Positions 605 through 24,421 of a stretch of 42,187 nt of DNA are shown here, one piece after another; positions within the stretch are counted from its first letter, which is position 1, and every line of letters starts with the position of its first letter. This DNA is from Puniceicoccales bacterium. GTDB taxonomy: Bacteria > Verrucomicrobiota > Verrucomicrobiia > Opitutales > JAIRLG01. Location: contig JAITIW010000048.1 of assembly GCA_031279255.1 (NCBI GenBank), forward strand, positions 1 through 42,187. Direction: 5' to 3'. The notes under the pieces were generated by a model. The model searched no databases, was not told the origin of the DNA, and saw only the letters and a list, made by a program, of their open reading frames with translations. The translations under genes were made by a program, and so were the position numbers.

Positions 605-681
605 GCGCCTCTAGCTCAATTGGATAGAGCATCTGACTACGGATCAGAAGGTTGCAGGTTCAACTCCTGCGAGGCGTGCCA
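605..681 (+). tRNA. tRNA-Arg(ACG)
   Basis: Acceptor stem GCGCCTC/GAGGCGT, anticodon arm TCTGA-CT-ACG-GA-TCAGA, GGTTCAA T-loop, encoded CCA. Confidence 0.97.
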
Positions 682-761: not shown

Positions 762-837
762 GGGGCCGTAGCTCAATTGGGAGAGCGCCACAATGGCATT
801 GTGGAGGTCGTCGGTTCGATCCCGATCGGCTCCACCA
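762..837 (+). tRNA. tRNA-Ala(GGC)
   Basis: GGGGCCG/CGGCTCC acceptor with G3:U70, anticodon arm CCACA-AT-GGC-AT-TGTGG, GGTTCGA, CCA end. Confidence 0.97.
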
Positions 838-1145
838 GGTTAAATCATCCGATCCGCTGCTGCGCTTTCGGATCGCATTGAAGATAGAGAAAGAGACCGA
901 GATGGGCGGATCAGGACGACGTTGGACTTTCGAGCTAGGCCAGAACCACATTGGACTTTCAAGCTAAATCAAAGAAAGATACAAGAAGATAAAAATAGCA
1001 GAAAATCTTGAGTACGCTGAAGCTGAGATATCCAACAGAGGCTTGTGCTGAATCTTTAGTGAAGCCTAAAGTACTTCTAAACTTCTGATAAAGATTATTT
1101 TATGACTGCAATCGCTGTAAAATACAGAATTTTCGGATATATATT

Positions 1146-1359
1146 AGTAGGATTTTTAAAAATCCTACTTTAAAACTGAAAGGAAATTTCAAAGCAATAC
1201 TTTAGTTTTTTTTGAAGAAATTTCAAAGTATAATTTTAGTTTTGCGATGATTTTCCGAAGTTCTACTTTAGTTTTGAAAGGAAATTTCAAAATAGTGCTT
1301 TACTTTTGGAAAGAAAAACTAAAATGTTGCTTTAAATTCGGAAGGATTTTTCAAAGTAG
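1146..1359. repeat. Perfect 24-bp palindrome followed by six degenerate ~32-bp tandem units
   Basis: AGTAGGATTTTTAAAAATCCTACT at 1146-1169; units start at 1166, 1198, 1232, 1264, 1296 and 1328, consensus about TRCTTTAnwwTTGRAAGGAwwTTTCAAAR. Confidence 0.8.
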
Positions 1360-1369
1360 TACCTATAAA

Positions 1370-2569
1370 ATGGACGAGATAAAAATATTCAGACGTCTTT
1401 TGCCGCCGTCGCTCAATTCCTTTTTCCTCTTCGGGCCGAGGGGGACGGGAAAGACTCTATGGCTAAAGCAGACATTTCCCGACGCGCTCAAAATTGACCT
1501 CCTCCAACCTGAGAATGCGCGGCTTTACAGCGCTAATCCGGAGCGCTTGCGGGACCTGACACTCGGGCGCCTGGTCACACAGCCGTCGCCGGTCGTCGTC
1601 ATTGATGAAATTCAGAGAGTACCTCAGCTGCTCGACGTCATCCACAGTCTTCATGAAAGCCATCCGCAGGTACAGTTCATCATGACCGGATCGAGCGCAC
1701 GGAAAATACGACGGCAGGACGTCAACCTCCTCGGCGGCAGGGCTTCTTGGCGTACCATGCATCCCTTTCTGGCGGCCGAAATGGGGCCGCAATTCCAGCT
1801 CTCTCAGGCACTACAATATGGCATGCTACCTGTCATCTGGGGACAAAGGCACCCAGCCGATGCTCTAAAGTCCTACGTCGGCACCTACCTCGAGGAGAAG
1901 GTCAAGCATGAGGGATTTTTCCGACATGTCGAACCCTTCGCTCGCTTCCTGTCCATTGCTTCTTTTTCGCATGGAAGCATACCCAATGCAACTTACATCG
2001 CTCGAGAATGCGGCGTATCGCAACCTACTGCCCAAACTTATTTTGAGATTCTGAAGGATCTCCTGATCAGCTTCCATGTCCCTCTTTTCTCAAAACGGGC
2101 GAAGCGGGTACTCATCAGCGCCAATAGGATGAAATTTTACTACGCTGATACCGGTATCTACCGGACTCTACGCCCCAAAGGTACTTTTGATCGACCGGAA
2201 GAAATCGAAGGACTTTGCCTCGAAGGCCTTGTGGCACAGCACCTGAGGGCCTGGTGCGACTATTTCGGTGACGGAACGAAATTATACTACTGGCGTACCA
2301 AAGCCGGAGTAGAAGTCGATTTCGTCCTCGACAGCCCCAACGGACTGTGGGCCATCGAGGTCAAGCACAGCGACGTCGTGCGGCGGGAGCATCTAAGCGG
2401 CCTACGTGCCTTTGGAAAGGACTATCCGGAAGCGCAACAGCTTTTCATCTACCGCGGCCACGAGACACTTGTCGTCGATTCCATCCTCTGTCTTCCCTGC
2501 GAAGATTTTTTGCGACAACTCAAAGGCCCGACTTTTTTAAAAATCGAGCCTTCCTTCACTTACCCTTAG
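1370..2569 (+). CDS. AAA+ ATPase (AAA_14-like) with C-terminal DUF4143 / PD-(D/E)xK nuclease-like domain
   Basis: Walker A GPRGTGKT, Walker B VVIDEIQ, TGSS motif, C-terminal YWRT..EVDFV..AIEVK. Start moved to ATG 1370 because the ORF-track extension translates the repeat array. Confidence 0.9.
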   Translation: MDEIKIFRRLLPPSLNSFFLFGPRGTGKTLWLKQTFPDALKIDLLQPENARLYSANPERLRDLTLGRLVTQPSPVVVIDEIQRVPQLLDVIHSLHESHPQVQFIMTGSSARKIRRQDVNLLGGRASWRTMHPFLAAEMGPQFQLSQALQYGMLPVIWGQRHPADALKSYVGTYLEEKVKHEGFFRHVEPFARFLSIASFSHGSIPNATYIARECGVSQPTAQTYFEILKDLLISFHVPLFSKRAKRVLISANRMKFYYADTGIYRTLRPKGTFDRPEEIEGLCLEGLVAQHLRAWCDYFGDGTKLYYWRTKAGVEVDFVLDSPNGLWAIEVKHSDVVRREHLSGLRAFGKDYPEAQQLFIYRGHETLVVDSILCLPCEDFLRQLKGPTFLKIEPSFTYP

Positions 2570-2588: not shown

Positions 2589-3537
2589 CTAGAAAGATAC
2601 CGTCATACGAGCGCCGAGCCATGCGATGGATTTATGATTCGTGAGGTAATTGGCCAAGTTGTTATTCGAAACATGTTTGCTATTGGAATTGATATTATAG
2701 TGGATGCCAATAGCCGACTCCACATGTCCATTCGGACAGAAGCATAATTCAAAAGTACCACCGGCATAAGCATAACGATTTTTCTCACTCGTGAGGTTAC
2801 GAATCTCCAATGGCATCCCATTAATCTTTTGAATATTGCCCAATTTCCCCGTAAAGAAGCGCTTTGCGCGGACATATCCGCCATTTACCTGAGTAGCTAT
2901 TTTTAACAAAGGTATACCTATACGTGCCAAATCGAAGCCATAATCCACCTTTCCTTCTAGCGTATAGGCTTTGCAACGGATATCATAATAGGCAAAAACC
3001 GAAGGCGTAACAGGCTCGAAGCATTTACAAATCACACCGGCTCCGAATTCCCAAATATCATCACGCGTATCATAACCATTCTGATCGTCACGCCAGTAAT
3101 GGATATACTTGGCATTCGCGTCCAATATCCAATCATCGTTCAGTAAGTAGCGCAGACCAAATTGCGTCCGCGTCTCATCGAAATCGAGCGTCAAGGCACC
3201 TCCTTCTGGTTTTGTCTGAATGGGAACGCTGAGAAACGTATCGATATAAAGTTCATACTTCCCCAACGGCAGAGCAAAAGCATGCTCCGTTTGCAAACAA
3301 CGTTTACAGCGCTCATATCCGCGATAAAAATATCGCTGATTGTATAGGATAGAACCCTCATAATTGGATAGAACCCTCATAATTCCACCGAGCACAGAAG
3401 TCCTCGATGCACTTAAAGCCGTGACATTTTTGATGACCATCGGCGCAACTATCACCTGCACAGCCACACCCAGCCGTTCCTCCCCATAAAGCCGAGCAAC
3501 AGGCCCACATTGATATACCAATTCCAACACGTCTCAT
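2589..3537 (-). pseudogene. Outer-membrane beta-barrel protein gene (Gcw_chp/TIGR02001-like), frameshifted by a 19-bp tandem duplication
   Basis: ATG 3537 with G-rich RBS gives signal-like MRRVGIGISMWACCSALWG and stops at 3360-3358. Removing one copy of the 19-mer restores a 309-aa frame with YFYRG motif, aromatic-rich strands and C-terminal Phe. Confidence 0.75.
3347..3384. repeat. Perfect 2 x 19-bp tandem duplication
   Basis: GGATAGAACCCTCATAATT at 3347-3365 and 3366-3384. Confidence 0.97.
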
Positions 3538-3898
3538 CCAACCCCCCTAGTAAAGTAGGATTCTAAAACAGGAGTTTTATCCTGTCAATGCGAAATTTAC
3601 AATTTTTTTACAAAGTTCTTTTACAAAAAAATAGATTTTCTCCAAAATGACATTAAGACGTCCCCAATTGCAAATGAAGGATACTCATATGAGTAAGCGT
3701 TAACGGTTTGACGCTTGTCAAACGACGAAATTCTTCTGTCGATAAATCTTTTAAACTCAAATATCTCATACTTTTTTCTCTAAACAACTATCTCTTTATA
3801 TCACTTATTTTTCGTTTCGAAGGAAGTCTGGTGAACGACCCAAGATAAAGCCATCAAGAGAAGATAGCATCTCATCTTAAGCTCTTTTTTCAAAAATC

Positions 3899-4789
3899 TC
3901 AAAGCTGTGCCTCTGCCTGTCGACGTATCTCTTCATATCGTTCCGGTAAAGGTTCTAACCCGATCATTTCCGGCAAAAAGCCGAGCTGTATGAGGGAAAA
4001 CCGGATGATAAAATAAAAATCGGCTCGCAAATTTCCCACGTTATATCGCCAACGCCAGCATTGTTGTCCCTGAAAAGTTCTCCAATGCACCCATTTGAAT
4101 TCTCCAGAACCCAACCATTCCTCATAATCTTGAGCAAATGCTAGACAAGCACGTATCCCTAATCTCATACCTTTATGAGGGGAATCAGCTCGCAACTCTT
4201 TCAAACTTTTAATGCAACTTTGACACCCTTTTGTAGCGTCTTCTAACGCAGCCCGTATCCGAAAATAACGTACTTCGCATTCTTCTCTCAGGGTTTCACC
4301 GTAAAGCTCATACTCCTGACTACCAGGAGGTGTTGGAATAAAGCCCGATTGCCGCAATAAAGAACGCAGATCTGACAAACGCTTGGATATTTCAAAAAAC
4401 AAATCAAAAGCAAAAACCAAACCATCCAGATAAAGATTATCCCCAAGCCATTGATGCCAATAATGAATCAGATCGTCTATGGGTAACAAATATACCCACT
4501 GCCATACACGCGTCTTATCAGCGTCATTCCAACGTCCCTTTGGTGCTTCTCGAAACACATAATCGAGCTTTTGCAGCCAAAGGGCCACATACTCGGAAAA
4601 TTGATTTCTCAAGCAAAGATCAAGAGGATAATACGGGTAATATTCATGAGAGACTTGTCCGTTCAGTATCTCCGCCATGGCCTCATGATCGCCTAATACA
4701 GATATATCTTCTTCCGTTAATTCCGCCGAGGTATTGGTGCTCCAAACCATCGCTGTTGTTAACAATATTCCTACACGATTCATTTTCAT
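3899..4789 (-). CDS. Hypothetical exported protein
   Basis: 296-aa ORF with signal-peptide-like start MKMNRVGILLTTAMVWSTNTSA-E; no family recognised. Confidence 0.75.
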   Translation of the reverse strand: MKMNRVGILLTTAMVWSTNTSAELTEEDISVLGDHEAMAEILNGQVSHEYYPYYPLDLCLRNQFSEYVALWLQKLDYVFREAPKGRWNDADKTRVWQWVYLLPIDDLIHYWHQWLGDNLYLDGLVFAFDLFFEISKRLSDLRSLLRQSGFIPTPPGSQEYELYGETLREECEVRYFRIRAALEDATKGCQSCIKSLKELRADSPHKGMRLGIRACLAFAQDYEEWLGSGEFKWVHWRTFQGQQCWRWRYNVGNLRADFYFIIRFSLIQLGFLPEMIGLEPLPERYEEIRRQAEAQL

Positions 4790-4829
4790 ATTTTTATAAA
4801 CTTCGCGTAAAATAATACTGAGATATGAG

Positions 4830-4866
4830 ACATTATTTTTACAATTAATAATTGTAAAAATAATGT
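4830..4866. promoter_or_regulatory. Perfect 18-bp inverted repeat with 1-nt spacer (possible operator or cruciform)
   Basis: ACATTATTTTTACAATTA-A-TAATTGTAAAAATAATGT, 40 bp upstream of the 4789 start codon; function is inferred. Confidence 0.5.
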
Positions 4867-5158
4867 AAATACTTGGTCATTCACATTAAACTCACCATTC
4901 GCCCCAATATTCTCTACGAAAAAATTCCCAACGACGAGATATAGTGCCCGATGGCTAAAATTTCATGATATCCTCCTCATGGACATTATCGTTTGCCTTT
5001 TGAGTAAAAACCCATAGAATCCTTCTTTGGGACTCAACGGGATGAAAAATGATAAGCGTCGCGCTGAATTGGCAGGGTGTATATAGCTCCTTTTAGCCGG
5101 AAACTAAGGTGTTTTTCATATTCCATGGCGGTAAAACAAAAAATCCATAAACAACATT

Positions 5159-5182
5159 AAAAAAGCCTCTAAAATAAGAGGC
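5159..5182 (-). terminator. Rho-independent terminator
   Basis: Stem GCCTCT/AGAGGC with 6-nt loop followed by T6 on the minus strand, ~70 nt after the stop at 5252. Confidence 0.65.
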
Positions 5183-5251
5183 AATTGATTTAAAAATAGT
5201 AAAGATACGCCATCTTTGTTAAAAACAGGCTCAGTAACTTAGTCATTCATA

Positions 5252-7054
5252 TCATCGAGTCAGCTTTTCTTGACATTTTTGAGCGAACTCACGATCACCT
5301 TCTCTTTCAGCTGCTTGGGCGTAATCGGATAGCACTTCACGATCAAAATCCCATGGAGCTCTTGGAACATCCAGCTCTCGGATCGCGCGGTAGACGCGTT
5401 CACAATTACCTTCATCTCGAAAGACAAAAGTTTGTTGCATACACTCAAGGTACTTTTGCTCTGGTTGACACTCATTTTGTAGTAAAGTTTCGAGTGCTTG
5501 AAATAATTTATCTCTAGTCCCGACGACAGGGCCAAATCCGTCTCGTAAATAGTCGAAATATCCACTCTGGTAGGTATGAGCACCTTGGGTCGTAACATTA
5601 TCAAACTGATAATAAATCACGGGACGCCTGAGCAAAGCCATCTCGAAGGCCGTCGATGAGTAATCGGTAATCATCACAGCTGATTCTAGAAAAACGTCTT
5701 GTATACTTCGGTTAAAACAAGTCACCTTTTCAATGCCTGGCAGTGTCCATTTACTTAAAAATTTACGCATAAGAGAGTGCGGGAAGAATATGATGCGGTA
5801 ACTGTATTTTTGAGCTAAGGCCGTCAGGCTTTTATCAGTTAAAAAGCCATTCCATTTTTCAAAATAATTCGTCCCTTGGAATGTCTTAAACATCTGATCA
5901 GCATTTTTTATTCCATCTGTTACGTCTTTGACATGTTTCCGCCATGTGGGCATGATTAAAATAGCCTTTTCAGGAAGTTTTTTGCCTTTGTTTTTTTTAG
6001 AAAACTCTCCGACTCTTCTGGCAAAATCTTTGGCATATCTCTGATTATCAGAACACCCCGGGTTGAGGTAACGATGCAATAAAGTATCATGGCGCGGAAG
6101 CCCCAGCATTTTCCCATGTGCCGGAAGAGTCTTGTAAGGCGTACCCTTACCGACGATACTATTGAATTCAGTGAATGTCGTGGTCACAAACAAATCCATT
6201 TCTTTGCCGTTAATCCATTCCGACATATCGTCTTTAATAACACCATGCTGCAAAAAGATGAAATGCTTAAAGCGCAAGAAATCAGGTCCGTAGCGTATCT
6301 TGAGCGCTTCAGCTGATTGCGACGAGATAATCTTCGAAGCTTTGTCGAGAATGGCCCTACAATCGTCAGCCACAAGCGCAGGCTTCTGGTCTTGTTTTAT
6401 CTCTTGTTTTAGGGCCAATAATTGAAATCCTTCTTTTGAAAGTTTGTTCCAGTAGGAATTGTCTTTACCATCGCCACCCATCTTGTTGATGGTGAAGTAG
6501 GGCGTAACATCACGTGAATGTTGTGTTCTTAGGAAACGATAAAAATGTTCGGCATTATCATCTCCTTCCGTACTGCGGTCTAGCAAAAGCCAAACATTCG
6601 CATTTTGTTCCGGATATTTTTCTCGCTTCAATCTTTCATAACGCGTCACGACATCTGGAATGTCGAAAACGTCTCTCAACGTTTCATTACCAAAAACATC
6701 TTTAAAATAACATGTCGTGCGGTTTACTTTAGCGGTCATACTTTTTACTCTTTCATAAGACACCAGCATATCGATAGCTTCTTGAGACCGTCCATCTTCA
6801 AGCTTGACGATATACTTTTTCTGAAAAAGAGGAGCAATTCTTTGGCCGTCTACTAAGATATTAAAGGTGTCTGGTAACCCTCTCGGGGTGAGAGGGAAAT
6901 AAGGATGGGGAAATTCCGAAATAGTGAAAAAAATTTCAGATTTGGCTGTGTCTACTTTTTGACAGCAAAAAACAGGAATAGCCGATAGTGAAGTTCCTAA
7001 GACTATCGACGCGCATAACGATAAAAATATCTGTTTTAGTTTTGTTTGATTCAT
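5252..7054 (-). CDS. CDP-glycerol glycerophosphotransferase family (TagF/TagB-like) protein with N-terminal signal-like sequence
   Basis: Motifs DDNAEHFY, FLQHGVIKDD, GLPRHD, IMPTWR, ITDYSS..FE, PVIYYQFD. GGAGGT RBS at 7066-7061 supports start at 7054. Confidence 0.9.
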   Translation of the reverse strand: MNQTKLKQIFLSLCASIVLGTSLSAIPVFCCQKVDTAKSEIFFTISEFPHPYFPLTPRGLPDTFNILVDGQRIAPLFQKKYIVKLEDGRSQEAIDMLVSYERVKSMTAKVNRTTCYFKDVFGNETLRDVFDIPDVVTRYERLKREKYPEQNANVWLLLDRSTEGDDNAEHFYRFLRTQHSRDVTPYFTINKMGGDGKDNSYWNKLSKEGFQLLALKQEIKQDQKPALVADDCRAILDKASKIISSQSAEALKIRYGPDFLRFKHFIFLQHGVIKDDMSEWINGKEMDLFVTTTFTEFNSIVGKGTPYKTLPAHGKMLGLPRHDTLLHRYLNPGCSDNQRYAKDFARRVGEFSKKNKGKKLPEKAILIMPTWRKHVKDVTDGIKNADQMFKTFQGTNYFEKWNGFLTDKSLTALAQKYSYRIIFFPHSLMRKFLSKWTLPGIEKVTCFNRSIQDVFLESAVMITDYSSTAFEMALLRRPVIYYQFDNVTTQGAHTYQSGYFDYLRDGFGPVVGTRDKLFQALETLLQNECQPEQKYLECMQQTFVFRDEGNCERVYRAIRELDVPRAPWDFDREVLSDYAQAAEREGDREFAQKCQEKLTR

Positions 7055-7193
7055 ATCCATACCTCCATTATAGTAGCCCCAGCAAACTGGAGTCGGCAGG
7101 CAATATAGAAAATTACTTACTTGAGTCAAATACATTCGGGCTCGCTTTTAAGAGGAAAAAGTCTAAATTAGGGAAATAACTTGGGATTGGTAT

Positions 7194-10100
7194 ATGGATA
7201 TTAGAAAAGCAATTGGATTGGATGAGAATGGTGCGCGCATAGCGATTTCAGAGGATAAAACACTGGTGGAATACATCAAACTGCGCCTCATGGCGATGGG
7301 ACAAGCGCTGGAGATGGAAGAAGATGATCCCTATACTGTGAGCCGGATCGCTGCGCCGATTTTTGCCAATGCTCAAGCCTTCCGACGACTCTTGGCTCAT
7401 TATCGCTCTCCGGTCGACACGAGGATTACGCAATTCCTCGACCGCTTTTTAGCCGATATTCCAGAAGCCGATCGGCATGAATGGCTCCCATTGCAGACAT
7501 TCGAAACCGATCGTTATGGTATGGCACGTATTCTGGCCTTACCTCTCGATGGCGATGAGTATCATTCGGAATACATCGATTCCTATCGCGTCGTGCAAGG
7601 GATCTTGCACAATCCGAAAGTCGACAAGCGAACAACAAAAGATGTCTTCCACATCGTTGAAGGCGGGCCTGTCGTACCGGATGACAAGATAGAGGTGCCG
7701 AAAATTGCCTTTGCGCGGCTCTTGAAAGCGGCCTGCCATCCGCCGCAGGAGCTTCTGGAGCTTCCCTTTACCGCCAATCAACGGCGTAAGGCCTACAGCT
7801 TTGTCTCCAGCTATCTCCGGCCGGTCGTCTGCCCAGAAGTTTCTGGATTTTGCCACGAGAAATATATGGAAATTCGTTTCTTCGCACCCGGATCGTTGGT
7901 CAACTTCATCGACTGCGTCGAGAGCATTTTCGGAACCGCCGGCTCTTCTTCTCTCCCTGAAAATAATGCCGCTCTAGATCCCGACGGCTGGACAGGTCAT
8001 ACGGGTTGTATCCTCATCGCACCGCATCTGACACAACTCAAGAAGAAAGATCTTGGATTACCCAACATTTCTCAGGCGACGGAACGACAGAAGCGCGATG
8101 GCATGTGCTGGTCCGATGAACATGAGCGCTATCACGACGGTCGACCGTTTAAAATCATGGCACGTACCTTAGAGGGTGTCATCGTCTCCATCATAGCCGA
8201 CAGTTATAATGGCTACGGCAAGAAGGAGATCAAAACCCACATCAGCTATTCCGCCAATCTCTATGGGCAGTGCGAAGAGGAACATTCCGGTGGGACATTG
8301 GCCTTTGCTTCCTACGATCTCGGCGATGAGTTTCGGCTCACGCGGATCGAGACATCACCCCATACCTTCGCCCAATTATTGAAGACACATACTCATTCCT
8401 TAATACCGCAGCCCGAGGGCTACGCGATTGATCAACATTATGACGATATTTTCTACGTTCCGGAAGATGCTCTTTTTACGCTTCAACCACTGGCTGTCCG
8501 CTGGAATCAGCACGGTCAAGAAGTTTCTATCCCACTACAGCCTGAGAAAACCTACATTCTGCCCTCTGGATATAGGGTCGAACTTATCGCACCGACTCAC
8601 GGTAGCTATGATCGCTGGCGCCTCGTCGGGACACGAGGTGAATGCGTCTTTTGCCACAAGCCGTCGACGGTATCAGGTGGCGGCAAGTCAGAAATTGCCA
8701 GTCCCATTGCGGACAACATCACGACCGGTACAGTACTCGTCGAAGACCTGCAGGAGGATTTTAGGCAATTGGAGGCCATACTGCAGCATGACCTCTCGCG
8801 GCGTTACCGTCATCCCGAAAAGGAAGAACTTCCGATACTGGATCCACGGCGTTCCCTGGGGTCCGTCATCAAGATGTTCCATCCGCATAAGGATTACAGC
8901 GATGAACATAATCAATGGATCACATCGCTACCACCCTATTTAAAAGATCTGCTCTTTGTCCTAAAAGCCTATTACAGACCCTCCTGGGGCAAGGATTGGC
9001 CGCATTATTTCTCGGTCGATGCGATCAATGGCCATTCCGGTTATACATTAAAATACCTCGAAACGCCACTCATCGCCCGCTATCTGCGAGTGGGCTCAAC
9101 CCATCGCCAATCCGGACGTCTCTTTACACTTCGCCAAGATTTCTATCCGGCCTGCAAATGGCAGATGGAAGACGACATTACTGCTTCGGTTGTCGTGCCC
9201 ATAGATTCACTTTCCGGTCTCAATGCCGAGGGTCATCCTTCGGTTAAGTTCGTCAGCAATATCGAATACCGTCTCTACCAACGTCCTGACGAGGCGATTG
9301 TTCCGGGATATGATCATAAATCGGAATACGCCATGACACTACCCGAGACATTTACGTGCAATCTGCATCCCATTACACGAGAAGAGGCACGCATCATGGT
9401 AGCCGACAGCATTGCCTTTTCCCGCTATACCGAACCGATGCAACATCTTTTAAAGACATTCGCAGAGCAAACCGATGGTCCTCGATTCGCCGCCTGTCCT
9501 TCCGTCCGACGGCGCATGTCCCATAATACCTTCAGCACCAATCCGCGCTACCTCGAAGATCGAGAAGACCTGACGCAGGCACGAAAGGCCTACCTCCTCC
9601 GTACTTCCACATGCCTTGCGCGACAGCTCTCCGAAGATCAGGCTATCCACTATAGTGTTCAGGCCGTCATTTCCGGCCGGCGCAATAATCCTCCGGAAGA
9701 AAATATCGCGCCGCTTTCCGTTCACAATCCGCTTCATTATCTCGAACTACCGGAGCTTTTTATGGAATATGCCTCTAACATGACCGGGAAATCTCCCTCG
9801 ACGACGGGTAGTGGACTCGAAGGCGTCATGACCAAACGACCTTTCAATGGCCTGAGTACGATCACCGATCTCAACAATGCCCTGACCAGTTTCCTGCTGA
9901 CTGGTTATCAAGGCTTTGTATCCTCGGCTGGCTTTCTGGGGCCTCATCATCCCATAGGCCATGATGTGACTTATCTCATACCGGAGATATGGTGCCGCAT
10001 GTCGGCCGAAGAACGCGATGCTTCGTTTCTCATAGAACACGGTTACCTGGAGCCCTGTTGTGATTTCATACACGAAGGCCACTGTGTCGAAGCTAGTCGC

Positions 10101-10655
10101 CTGGGATACCGCATCACGGATCATTTTGTCAAAACATTCGCCGGACGTATTTTCTCAAGTCCAGAGACACTCTTTACGGAAGAAATGCTACGACCAGAAT
10201 TACAGGACAGGGACATTTTTTCCCAAAGCATGGCGAATATCGTCGATGCCCATCGGAGAGCCGCCGAGATCTTTTTTCACGATGGCTCCATTGAGGGCGC
10301 CTGTCCGCCACTCCGAGCACTACTGGAAATCATGGCTTTTGGAGAATCGGATGGATTACAACGTTCCTCGCCGGAATTCCGAAAAATGTTCGATCCTTCG
10401 ACGATACGTTCGCAAGAATGGTACCAGCAACGGCTGGAAGCTTTTCGTCGGCAACAGATCCGCCACTGGGAACGCTGTCATCGCGAAGTCAAGGCATGCT
10501 GCGATAAGTCCTATTCCGATGGGAATGAGCCCGACATAACGGCCTCAACTTCTCAGCGCCTCGCTGCCATTGAGGAACAACTTCAACGACTTCAGGCTCA
10601 AGACGCGACATTCTTTCAAGGTTGCCTCGGCCTCGATCCCTATGTCTGTCCGTAA
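7194..10655 (+). CDS. PPi-dependent phosphoenolpyruvate carboxykinase (PEP carboxytransphosphorylase)
   Basis: 1153 aa; motifs LHNP..DKRTT..VFHI.EGG, RFFAPGSLV, ISYSANLYG.CEEEHSGG, CHKPSTVSGGGKSEI, GKSPSTTG recalled as typical of PPi-PEPCK. Confidence 0.85.
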   Translation: MDIRKAIGLDENGARIAISEDKTLVEYIKLRLMAMGQALEMEEDDPYTVSRIAAPIFANAQAFRRLLAHYRSPVDTRITQFLDRFLADIPEADRHEWLPLQTFETDRYGMARILALPLDGDEYHSEYIDSYRVVQGILHNPKVDKRTTKDVFHIVEGGPVVPDDKIEVPKIAFARLLKAACHPPQELLELPFTANQRRKAYSFVSSYLRPVVCPEVSGFCHEKYMEIRFFAPGSLVNFIDCVESIFGTAGSSSLPENNAALDPDGWTGHTGCILIAPHLTQLKKKDLGLPNISQATERQKRDGMCWSDEHERYHDGRPFKIMARTLEGVIVSIIADSYNGYGKKEIKTHISYSANLYGQCEEEHSGGTLAFASYDLGDEFRLTRIETSPHTFAQLLKTHTHSLIPQPEGYAIDQHYDDIFYVPEDALFTLQPLAVRWNQHGQEVSIPLQPEKTYILPSGYRVELIAPTHGSYDRWRLVGTRGECVFCHKPSTVSGGGKSEIASPIADNITTGTVLVEDLQEDFRQLEAILQHDLSRRYRHPEKEELPILDPRRSLGSVIKMFHPHKDYSDEHNQWITSLPPYLKDLLFVLKAYYRPSWGKDWPHYFSVDAINGHSGYTLKYLETPLIARYLRVGSTHRQSGRLFTLRQDFYPACKWQMEDDITASVVVPIDSLSGLNAEGHPSVKFVSNIEYRLYQRPDEAIVPGYDHKSEYAMTLPETFTCNLHPITREEARIMVADSIAFSRYTEPMQHLLKTFAEQTDGPRFAACPSVRRRMSHNTFSTNPRYLEDREDLTQARKAYLLRTSTCLARQLSEDQAIHYSVQAVISGRRNNPPEENIAPLSVHNPLHYLELPELFMEYASNMTGKSPSTTGSGLEGVMTKRPFNGLSTITDLNNALTSFLLTGYQGFVSSAGFLGPHHPIGHDVTYLIPEIWCRMSAEERDASFLIEHGYLEPCCDFIHEGHCVEASRLGYRITDHFVKTFAGRIFSSPETLFTEEMLRPELQDRDIFSQSMANIVDAHRRAAEIFFHDGSIEGACPPLRALLEIMAFGESDGLQRSSPEFRKMFDPSTIRSQEWYQQRLEAFRRQQIRHWERCHREVKACCDKSYSDGNEPDITASTSQRLAAIEEQLQRLQAQDATFFQGCLGLDPYVCP

Positions 10656-24333: not shown

Positions 24334-24421
24334 GCCCGCCTTTGCGATGAAAAATGAAGATTTTTATTTTTCTATCGCGGCCCGCAAAGCGGGCAAGGGT
24401 CCGAAGGGCCCAAAGGCGGGC
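24334..24421. repeat. Cloverleaf palindromic element, copy D (inverted relative to B)
   Basis: Closing stem GCCCGCCTTTG/CAAAGGCGGGC; AT-rich arm, GCCCGC-AAA-GCGGGC, GGGTCC-GAA-GGGCCC. Confidence 0.85.

Follow-up and report, generated by a model that had tools for sequence, protein, structure and literature searches.

The window analysed here, 42,187 nucleotides of contig JAITIW010000048.1 from a Puniceicoccales bacterium, carries two tRNA genes followed by a tandem array of 32-bp units and, 10 nt beyond the end of the array, the ATG (1370) of a gene encoding the 399-amino-acid protein P0001 (Table 1). Both of its domains lie above their Pfam cut-offs (AAA_14, 72.6 bits, cut-off 27; DUF4143, 104.4 bits, cut-off 28.1), confirming the AAA+/DUF4143 ATPase-nuclease identity proposed in a sequence-only reading of the locus, and seven PADLOC models of PDC-S01 match the protein (best E 3e-44, in a library that sets no cut-off); NCBIfam provides no family for it. 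By model and by both Pfam domains, P0001 is a member of PDC-S01 (AAA_14 plus DUF4143; COG1373), which one survey, counting ~39,000 copies, places fourth in abundance among prokaryotic defence systems and lists as not validated (PMC12988326). Defence nevertheless remains a label for this locus: a PDC-S01 member challenged with T7, T5 and T4 is reported not to have protected its host (10.1101/2024.09.26.614923). The gene forms a single-gene unit, the next three ORFs lying on the opposite strand and differing in same-genus loci. A 440-aa ORF starting at 1247, within the array, was rejected as the coding frame because homology begins at M1370.

Table 1. Features of the PDC-S01 locus, in coordinates of the window
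Feature	Position	Strand	Remarks
tRNA-Arg(ACG)	605..681	+	context only
tRNA-Ala(GGC)	762..837	+	context only
Conserved block upstream of array, candidate promoter	1106..1141	+	putative, from alignment to homologue; remnant in G003
Palindrome, perfect 24-bp	1146..1169	none	lineage-specific variant of first half-site, not conserved
Array, six 32-bp units (second 34 bp)	1166..1359	+	predicted operator array; YAAAG-type half-sites alternating in orientation, 5-/17-bp gaps
PDC-S01 / COG1373-type gene P0001, 399 aa	1370..2569	+	AAA_14 ATPase, winged helix, DUF4143 PD-(D/E)XK domain
Walker A (GPRGTGKT, aa 22-29) to Walker B (DE, aa 79-80)	1433..1609	+	intact
Predicted winged helix-turn-helix, aa ~187-240	1928..2089	+	helices 187-200, 207-214, 218-230, then strand pair
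Codons S217-Q218-P219, start of predicted recognition helix	2018..2026	+	co-vary with half-site bases
PD-(D/E)XK-type motif E315-x-D317 ... E330-x-K332	2312..2365	+	intact

Among 212 homologues of P0001, the Walker residues G22, K28 and E80 are conserved in 212, 211 and 212, respectively, and the residues of the nuclease motif, whose domain is assigned to the PD-(D/E)XK family (PMC3424549, accessible part), in 207-209. An AlphaFold (AF2) model of the protein (pLDDT 90.4) contains a three-helix-plus-strand-pair unit at residues ~187-240, and an HTH_36 match was obtained at an E-value of 7e-4, under the Pfam cut-off. The best fold matches are two archaeal STAND-like ATPases, SSO1545 (2fna; Z 15.4, rmsd 3.4) and PAB2304 (2qen; Z 15.1, rmsd 3.1), which differ from P0001 in that identity is 17-18% and the alignment (246 residues, aa 1-269) stops short of the nuclease domain, which the fold search barely covered; a search of literature titles found no DNA site described for either. 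A plant NLR is the next match (Z 12.7). Foldseek places Cdc6/Orc1 at rank 1 (E 6e-7) with a TM-score of just 0.25, and a PDB profile search with P0001 returned AAA ATPases only, matched over the Walker region.

The six units of the array occupy positions 1166-1197, 1198-1231 (the 34-bp unit), 1232-1263, 1264-1295, 1296-1327 and 1328-1359, as the sequence-only reading had described them, down to the 10 nt before the ATG; the unit that it quoted as an example is unit 4, exactly. Any two units agree at 16-25 of 32 positions, unit 3 being degenerate with a leave-one-out score of 10; one unit carries a 2-bp insertion, and TRF calls only the last 3.0 copies (1266-1360, score 83). The array autocorrelates at 0.56 for a lag of 32 and at 0.53 for a lag of 64, whereas the best lag in dinucleotide shuffles (n=2000) averages 0.40 with a maximum of 0.50, none of the 2000 reaching 0.56 at any lag; the periodicity thus stands out from shuffled sequence, a comparison that had been put forward as its check. 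Two dyads are conserved within the array: YAAAG-N5-CTTTA at the unit junctions, with centres at 1165, 1197, 1231, 1263, 1295, 1327 and 1359, and CTTTA-N17-YAAAG inside the units. The internal dyad originally reported for several units, TTTTGAAA-N5-TTTCAAAA, is exact in unit 4 alone (1272-1292) and is not preserved among the four units found upstream of a 79%-identical homologue from an order-level relative (Puniceicoccales). A CRISPR-like array was also considered and rejected, the units being contiguous and their divergence spread along them, in place of constant repeats and unique spacers.

The palindrome at 1146-1169 is perfect over 24 bp, exactly as first read. Perfect palindromes of at least 24 bp arise in 3 of 5000 dinucleotide shuffles of positions 1070-1369, and this one is among four of that length in the whole 885-kb genome. 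The 79%-identical homologue has an ordinary half-site at the aligned place; because it keeps units of the same motif and lacks the palindrome, it is the array that is conserved, not the palindrome. The latter is moreover even-centred, unlike the dyads of the family, and we do not regard it as a functional or special part of the module; it may have arisen by template switching. No second copy of the array exists elsewhere in the 885-kb genome, nor any comparable site, the highest score elsewhere being 18.1; the genome-wide dyad count of 9 falls within the 3-10 found for other spacers. In sequencing reads, a Logan contig covers the stretch completely and differs from it at one letter only, inside the ORF; its run may have supplied this very DNA, so the agreement is no independent confirmation. 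A further run, X2, which covers the gene of a relative, does so only from 1330 on and leaves most of the array without cover.

The same tRNA-Arg/tRNA-Ala pair precedes the locus in the same-genus genomes G001 and G003, and the locus is therefore an old resident of this site. It is chromosomal, and in three same-genus genomes it is syntenic with the tRNAs and with a downstream gene of 1153 aa; no integrase or replicon gene is present among the five ORFs scanned. Proximity to tRNA genes, which had been noted as a trait of the module, is local, a tRNA lying within 900 nt upstream in just 4 of 149 homologues, and tRNA-linked integration was discarded on the same count. In G003 (90% complete), which yields no match to the P0001 protein, what follows the same tRNAs is a 25-nt remnant of the start of the gene, with two or three units in a decayed state (L346:1941-2080), an orphan array remaining where the PDC-S01 gene was deleted. 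The decayed units score 18.0 (with a 2-nt gap) and 13.1, compared with leave-one-out scores of 10.1-39.1 (median ~35) for the intact units; this one genome fits the view that the array is maintained only together with its gene.

Several other elements of the region were recorded. Three genes on the minus strand (2589-7135; 313, 296 and 627 aa), not present in G003, lie between the PDC-S01 gene and the 1153-aa gene; two are without Pfam or NCBIfam match and the third encodes a CDP-glycerol glycerophosphotransferase. The conserved 1153-aa ORF itself (7194-10655), syntenic in G001 and G003, has no Pfam or NCBIfam match and may encode a PPi-dependent PEP carboxykinase-like protein. Within the 313-aa ORF (3347-3384) lies an exact 19-nt tandem duplication, and a two-copy 26-nt repeat, spaced 29 nt, follows tRNA-Ala (912-966). 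A dispersed, REP/MITE-like palindromic repeat of ~100 bp (310-420, also ~24336-24419) has 70 long BLAST matches in the 885-kb genome, a heavy load for a genome this small, and dozens in same-genus G002; a second dispersed family, of ~110 bp (3715-3835), has 20 long matches in the genome and many in G001. Besides P0001 there is a distant PDC-S01 paralogue of 24% identity (L001/L018 at G000:C61:10395-11432, and L020 in G001), with an upstream block of its own that is conserved between both genomes and lacks an array.

Homologous loci were drawn from genomes of one phylum, plus 80 metagenome loci; single-protein scans contributed 1 locus from genome contigs and 0 from viral contigs. Across 158 distinct loci, strong repeats (score at least 20) occur upstream of the gene in 11/153, downstream in 2/144 and further upstream in 0/134. 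When homologues of at least 33% identity are considered (n=120), a repeat at lag 32 is present upstream in 27 and downstream in 1, with 1.3 in shuffles, and no other lag rises above 7; periodic arrays do therefore recur upstream of homologues, the outcome anticipated if the array belongs to the gene family as a phased set of cognate sites. PDC-S01 subfamilies below 33% identity (51 loci) show no 32-bp peak. Upstream arrays are seen in some members of other subfamilies (L013, L014, L022, L156, L159), with periods of 28/56, 23/46 and 22/44, so that each subfamily seemingly has its own spacing rule.

Among the 120 homologues of at least 33% identity, dyads with odd spacers are found in 34-56 loci versus 9-11 in shuffled sequence, even spacers remaining at baseline, and the sites follow a common grammar in which a 5-bp core behind an A/T tract recurs in alternating orientation with gaps of 5 and 17 bp (5+5+5+17 = 32). 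In 118 loci from four well-coded classes, both gaps are present in 41, the 17-bp gap only in 37, the 5-bp gap only in 7 and neither in 33. Dyad centres cluster 16 bp apart, at -23 and -7 and at -31, -15 and +1 from the start codon. The motif proper to each class is confined to the gene's own upstream region (73/118, against 2/112 downstream and 2/112 far upstream), and bracketing sites downstream of the gene were accordingly dismissed. A clear 31-33-bp repeat is present in 15/207 loci and spans at least 90 nt in 5/207; long arrays with different unit sequences and the same 32-bp period occur in several lineages (L006, L112). The array in the window is the long extreme of this subfamily-wide grammar, and, long arrays being so rare, its extra units may be dispensable.

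What reads these sites was addressed through co-variation. The 342 loci with a match were reduced to 301 distinct loci, 231 of them in the subfamily and 212 under 85% identity, and dyads were called blind, i.e. without protein information; scores of at least 8 are reached by 45% of loci and 12% of shuffles. In a mutual-information screen of the 166 of 212 loci with a dyad score of at least 6.5 (46 were dropped), the most informative protein columns for core bases 1, 2 and 3 are residues 218, 219 and 217, respectively; the flanks of the half-site and core bases 4-5 gave no helix signal in this blind screen. The expectation that unit sequence would co-vary with the central helical domain of the protein was thus borne out, with 217-219 as top columns. 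Among pairs at 50-60% identity outside the winged helix (124 high-confidence loci), those sharing 0, 1, 2 or 3 of these residues share 0.38, 0.87, 1.77 and 2.12 bases of three. With identity held fixed, the three-residue windows (n=396) at 218 and 217 give r values of 0.43 and 0.42; the best non-overlapping window gives 0.16, and the median is -0.006.

In a cross-table whose residue classes were drawn up after the data were seen, ERK goes with GGA (23/24), [SKPA]RK with GGC (18/31), xRT with GAC (15/22) and xR[SNA] with TAC (11/27). The class to which the window belongs (non-R218, P219) has an AAAG dyad in 11/17 loci versus 14/191 in others, and 6/17 are without the dyad, all of these being training loci. 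L197 (SQP), which is 57% identical, has a different site called; L016, only 35% identical and from a different clade, combines SSP with the same TAAAG dyad, its tree neighbours having GGAG-type sites. In ERK-type genes (L061, L093, L102), the start plus next codon, ATG GAA, appears to form the last half-site, and 17-bp-gap dyads centred at -7 number 19 cases in genes of this type.

A held-out test, with rules set beforehand, covered 46 new loci under 85% identity, 17 of which fall in the classes. The predicted motif is present in 6/17, versus 2/68 off-target cells (Fisher p 6e-4, with cells that are not independent); by class, the window's class (predicting AAAG) scored 0/3 and xRT 0/2, and no ERK locus was present. 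A looser motif, TACTTT/AAAGTA, is found in 11/20 loci of the window's class and 11/238 of the others when training loci are included. Tree-based tests on independent pairs (146/258 loci) found 5.0/6, 3.5/5 and 2.3/5 pairs agreeing with expectation, compared with 0.0, 0.0 and 0.1 pairs opposing it, at median p values of 0.06, 0.125 and 0.5, none significant. The held-out loci modestly support the recognition code, for which the evidence is good across the family and weaker in the exact class of the window. Since the letters of the repeats change in step with three residues of the predicted helix, the repeats probably serve the protein itself as binding sites, and we consider cognate binding of the array by the encoded protein very probable.

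To what end the array would be bound is less certain. It is likely the operator at which the encoded ATPase-nuclease represses its own transcription, and such autorepression is probably the main job of the array. The predicted winged helix would bind the 5-bp half-sites with the start of its helix in the major groove and its wing on the A/T flank. Half-site cores are 10 and 22 bp apart (~1 and 2 turns), which would put protomers on one DNA face and let them pair both ways; a longer array would consequently load more protomers, cooperatively via the AAA+ domains. Occupancy would block RNA polymerase over the -35/-10/start region in most relatives and, in the window copy, would form a roadblock behind a promoter near 1106-1141. 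The purpose of this arrangement would be to keep an intact, potentially self-damaging nuclease at a low level until a trigger is received.

In relatives, promoter sequences are consistent with such a role. In a set of 258 loci, a -35-like hexamer was counted 93 times at -34 to -39 relative to the start codon, a position that suggests leaderless promoters under the dyads, and many relatives are apparently leaderless. At the window locus, the block at 1106-1141 has CTGCAA, 16 nt and AATTTT, with TTGACA at the aligned place in the homologue; a sigma-70 scan of 800-1500 found no plus-strand site and did not pick up this block. The array had been pictured as a multimer-binding platform serving autoregulation, iteron-like loading or self-marking. 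Cognate, phased sites are retained from that picture, with autoregulation as the option that appears to fit best; self-marking loses ground because the genome has no comparable site elsewhere, and iteron-like loading of a replicon because the locus sits in the chromosome and keeps its synteny across three same-genus genomes. A motif that is upstream only, in a genome with no second site, likewise argues against bracketing, against a regulon and against genome-wide marking, the last two of which were dropped.

Autoregulatory operators of helix-turn-helix proteins are well known from the controller (C) proteins of restriction-modification systems and their C-boxes, from AbiEi and from lambda cI at OR: dyads lie over the protein's own promoter, often with a leaderless mRNA and in tandem, and the first residues of the recognition helix set specificity. 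The PDC-S01 sites resemble these operators in their tandem dyads upstream of the gene, over the predicted promoter in most relatives, and in the tracking of bases by the start of the recognition helix. They differ in that reader, ATPase and nuclease are one polypeptide here, and in half-sites that alternate 5- and 17-bp gaps with a 32-bp period over up to six units.

The alternative that survives best, though an unlikely one, accepts that the sites are cognate and makes the array a docking platform with a main function other than the control of transcription. The ATPase-nuclease would be held there in an inactive polymer, with the DNA in the role of an antitoxin or of a sensor of integrity; active nuclease would be freed once the site is lost or cut, for example in phage-driven breakdown of host DNA or after gene loss. 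Polymerisation would proceed on the 32-bp-phased half-sites via two alternating dimer interfaces, the three-residue code would keep paralogues orthogonal, and array loss or cleavage would both derepress the gene and release the nuclease; members of PDC-S01 could then, with the same low probability, be STAND-like nucleases restrained by a private DNA array and not by a partner protein or RNA. The evidence for cognate sites (grammar and co-variation) serves this reading equally, the STAND-like fold (SSO1545, Z 15.4; plant NLR, Z 12.7) and the intact ATPase and nuclease motifs agree with it, and the joint presence of 5- and 17-bp geometries in 41/118 loci would fit polymer formation. However, the sites sit on the promoter/start region (73/118 vs 2/112), for which plain repression is the simpler account, most loci have 1-2 dyads only, the gene was cleanly lost in G003, which speaks against strong addiction, and one PDC-S01 tested was without phage protection (10.1101/2024.09.26.614923).

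It is also conceivable, at somewhat longer odds, that one or two dyads make up the functional operator and that the six-unit array is a neutral expansion by slippage. Close relatives do differ in copy number, with 6 units at this locus and 4 upstream of the 79%-identical homologue, long arrays are rare (5/207), and the 2-bp insertion and the degenerate unit 3 (leave-one-out score 10) would be in keeping with this view. Against this, half-site cores and spacing have been kept while units diverged to 16-25 of 32 shared letters, and long arrays with different units have the same 32-bp period in several lineages (L006, L112).

Cdc6/Orc1 proteins with their origin recognition boxes, and plasmid Rep proteins with their iterons, are further cases of repeated sites beside the protein's own gene. 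P0001 likewise combines an AAA+ domain with a predicted winged helix, although SSO1545 and PAB2304 fit its fold better, and a loading site of the iteron or origin-recognition-box type, for replication or mobility of a selfish element, could also account for the Cdc6/Orc1 match that tops the Foldseek list (E 6e-7) and for a patchy distribution with many paralogues per genome. This explanation is nonetheless very improbable: the TM-score to Cdc6/Orc1 is 0.25, P0001 has a C-terminal nuclease, the sites vary between homologues, and no matching site lies downstream. Nor does the locus have an origin or replicon context, given its chromosomal synteny with the tRNAs and the 1153-aa gene in three same-genus genomes, the five ORFs free of integrase or replicon genes, and the lost gene and decayed array in G003; just 4 phage records were matched, all at 25% identity or less.

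In type III toxin-antitoxin systems (ToxIN/CptIN/TenpIN), tandem repeats of ~30-40 nt directly precede a nuclease gene, a layout that the PDC-S01 locus shares. The repeats might by analogy act as RNA, either a type III antitoxin-like RNA or a structured leader, the latter already raised in the sequence-only reading; positions 1140-1372 do fold well (z = -3.27 vs shuffles), and the candidate promoter may be placed so that the array is transcribed from it. We give this reading hardly any weight, since the dyads behave as DNA symmetry, with mismatches that show no G-U bias (G-T 22, A-C 30), and good folding is expected of any dyad-rich DNA. A scan of 800-1500 returned 0 terminator-like sites, so nothing of the kind separates the array from the gene; Rfam matches are confined to the tRNAs, and in many homologues a dyad overlaps the -35/-10 boxes and would stay untranscribed. 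A toxin of the ToxN/CptN/TenpN type was excluded, Pfam giving AAA_14 and DUF4143 only and no endoribonuclease family. That a separate host transcription factor reads the array is just as improbable, as the bases track helix residues of the encoded protein itself and the genome offers no second comparable site (best outside score 18.1; dyad count 9, other spacers 3-10).

Autoregulation by a helix-turn-helix protein is in itself ordinary, and the moderate surprise lies in the family and in the code. The literature examined, mostly its open-access part, mentions neither a DNA site nor a promoter element, nor any recognition code, for PDC-S01, and the predictions made here would supply all three. 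For this family, site and three-residue code would be a first direct biochemical handle, in the form of a defined, predicted DNA substrate, and the code yields predictions for helix swaps. Self-repression, or a missing trigger, is a possible reason why simple cloning assays of PDC-S01 may fail. Orthogonal sites would also explain why many paralogues are kept per genome, as in genome G340, which has 28 DUF4143 matches, and these paralogues would then represent a natural set of orthogonal DNA readers.
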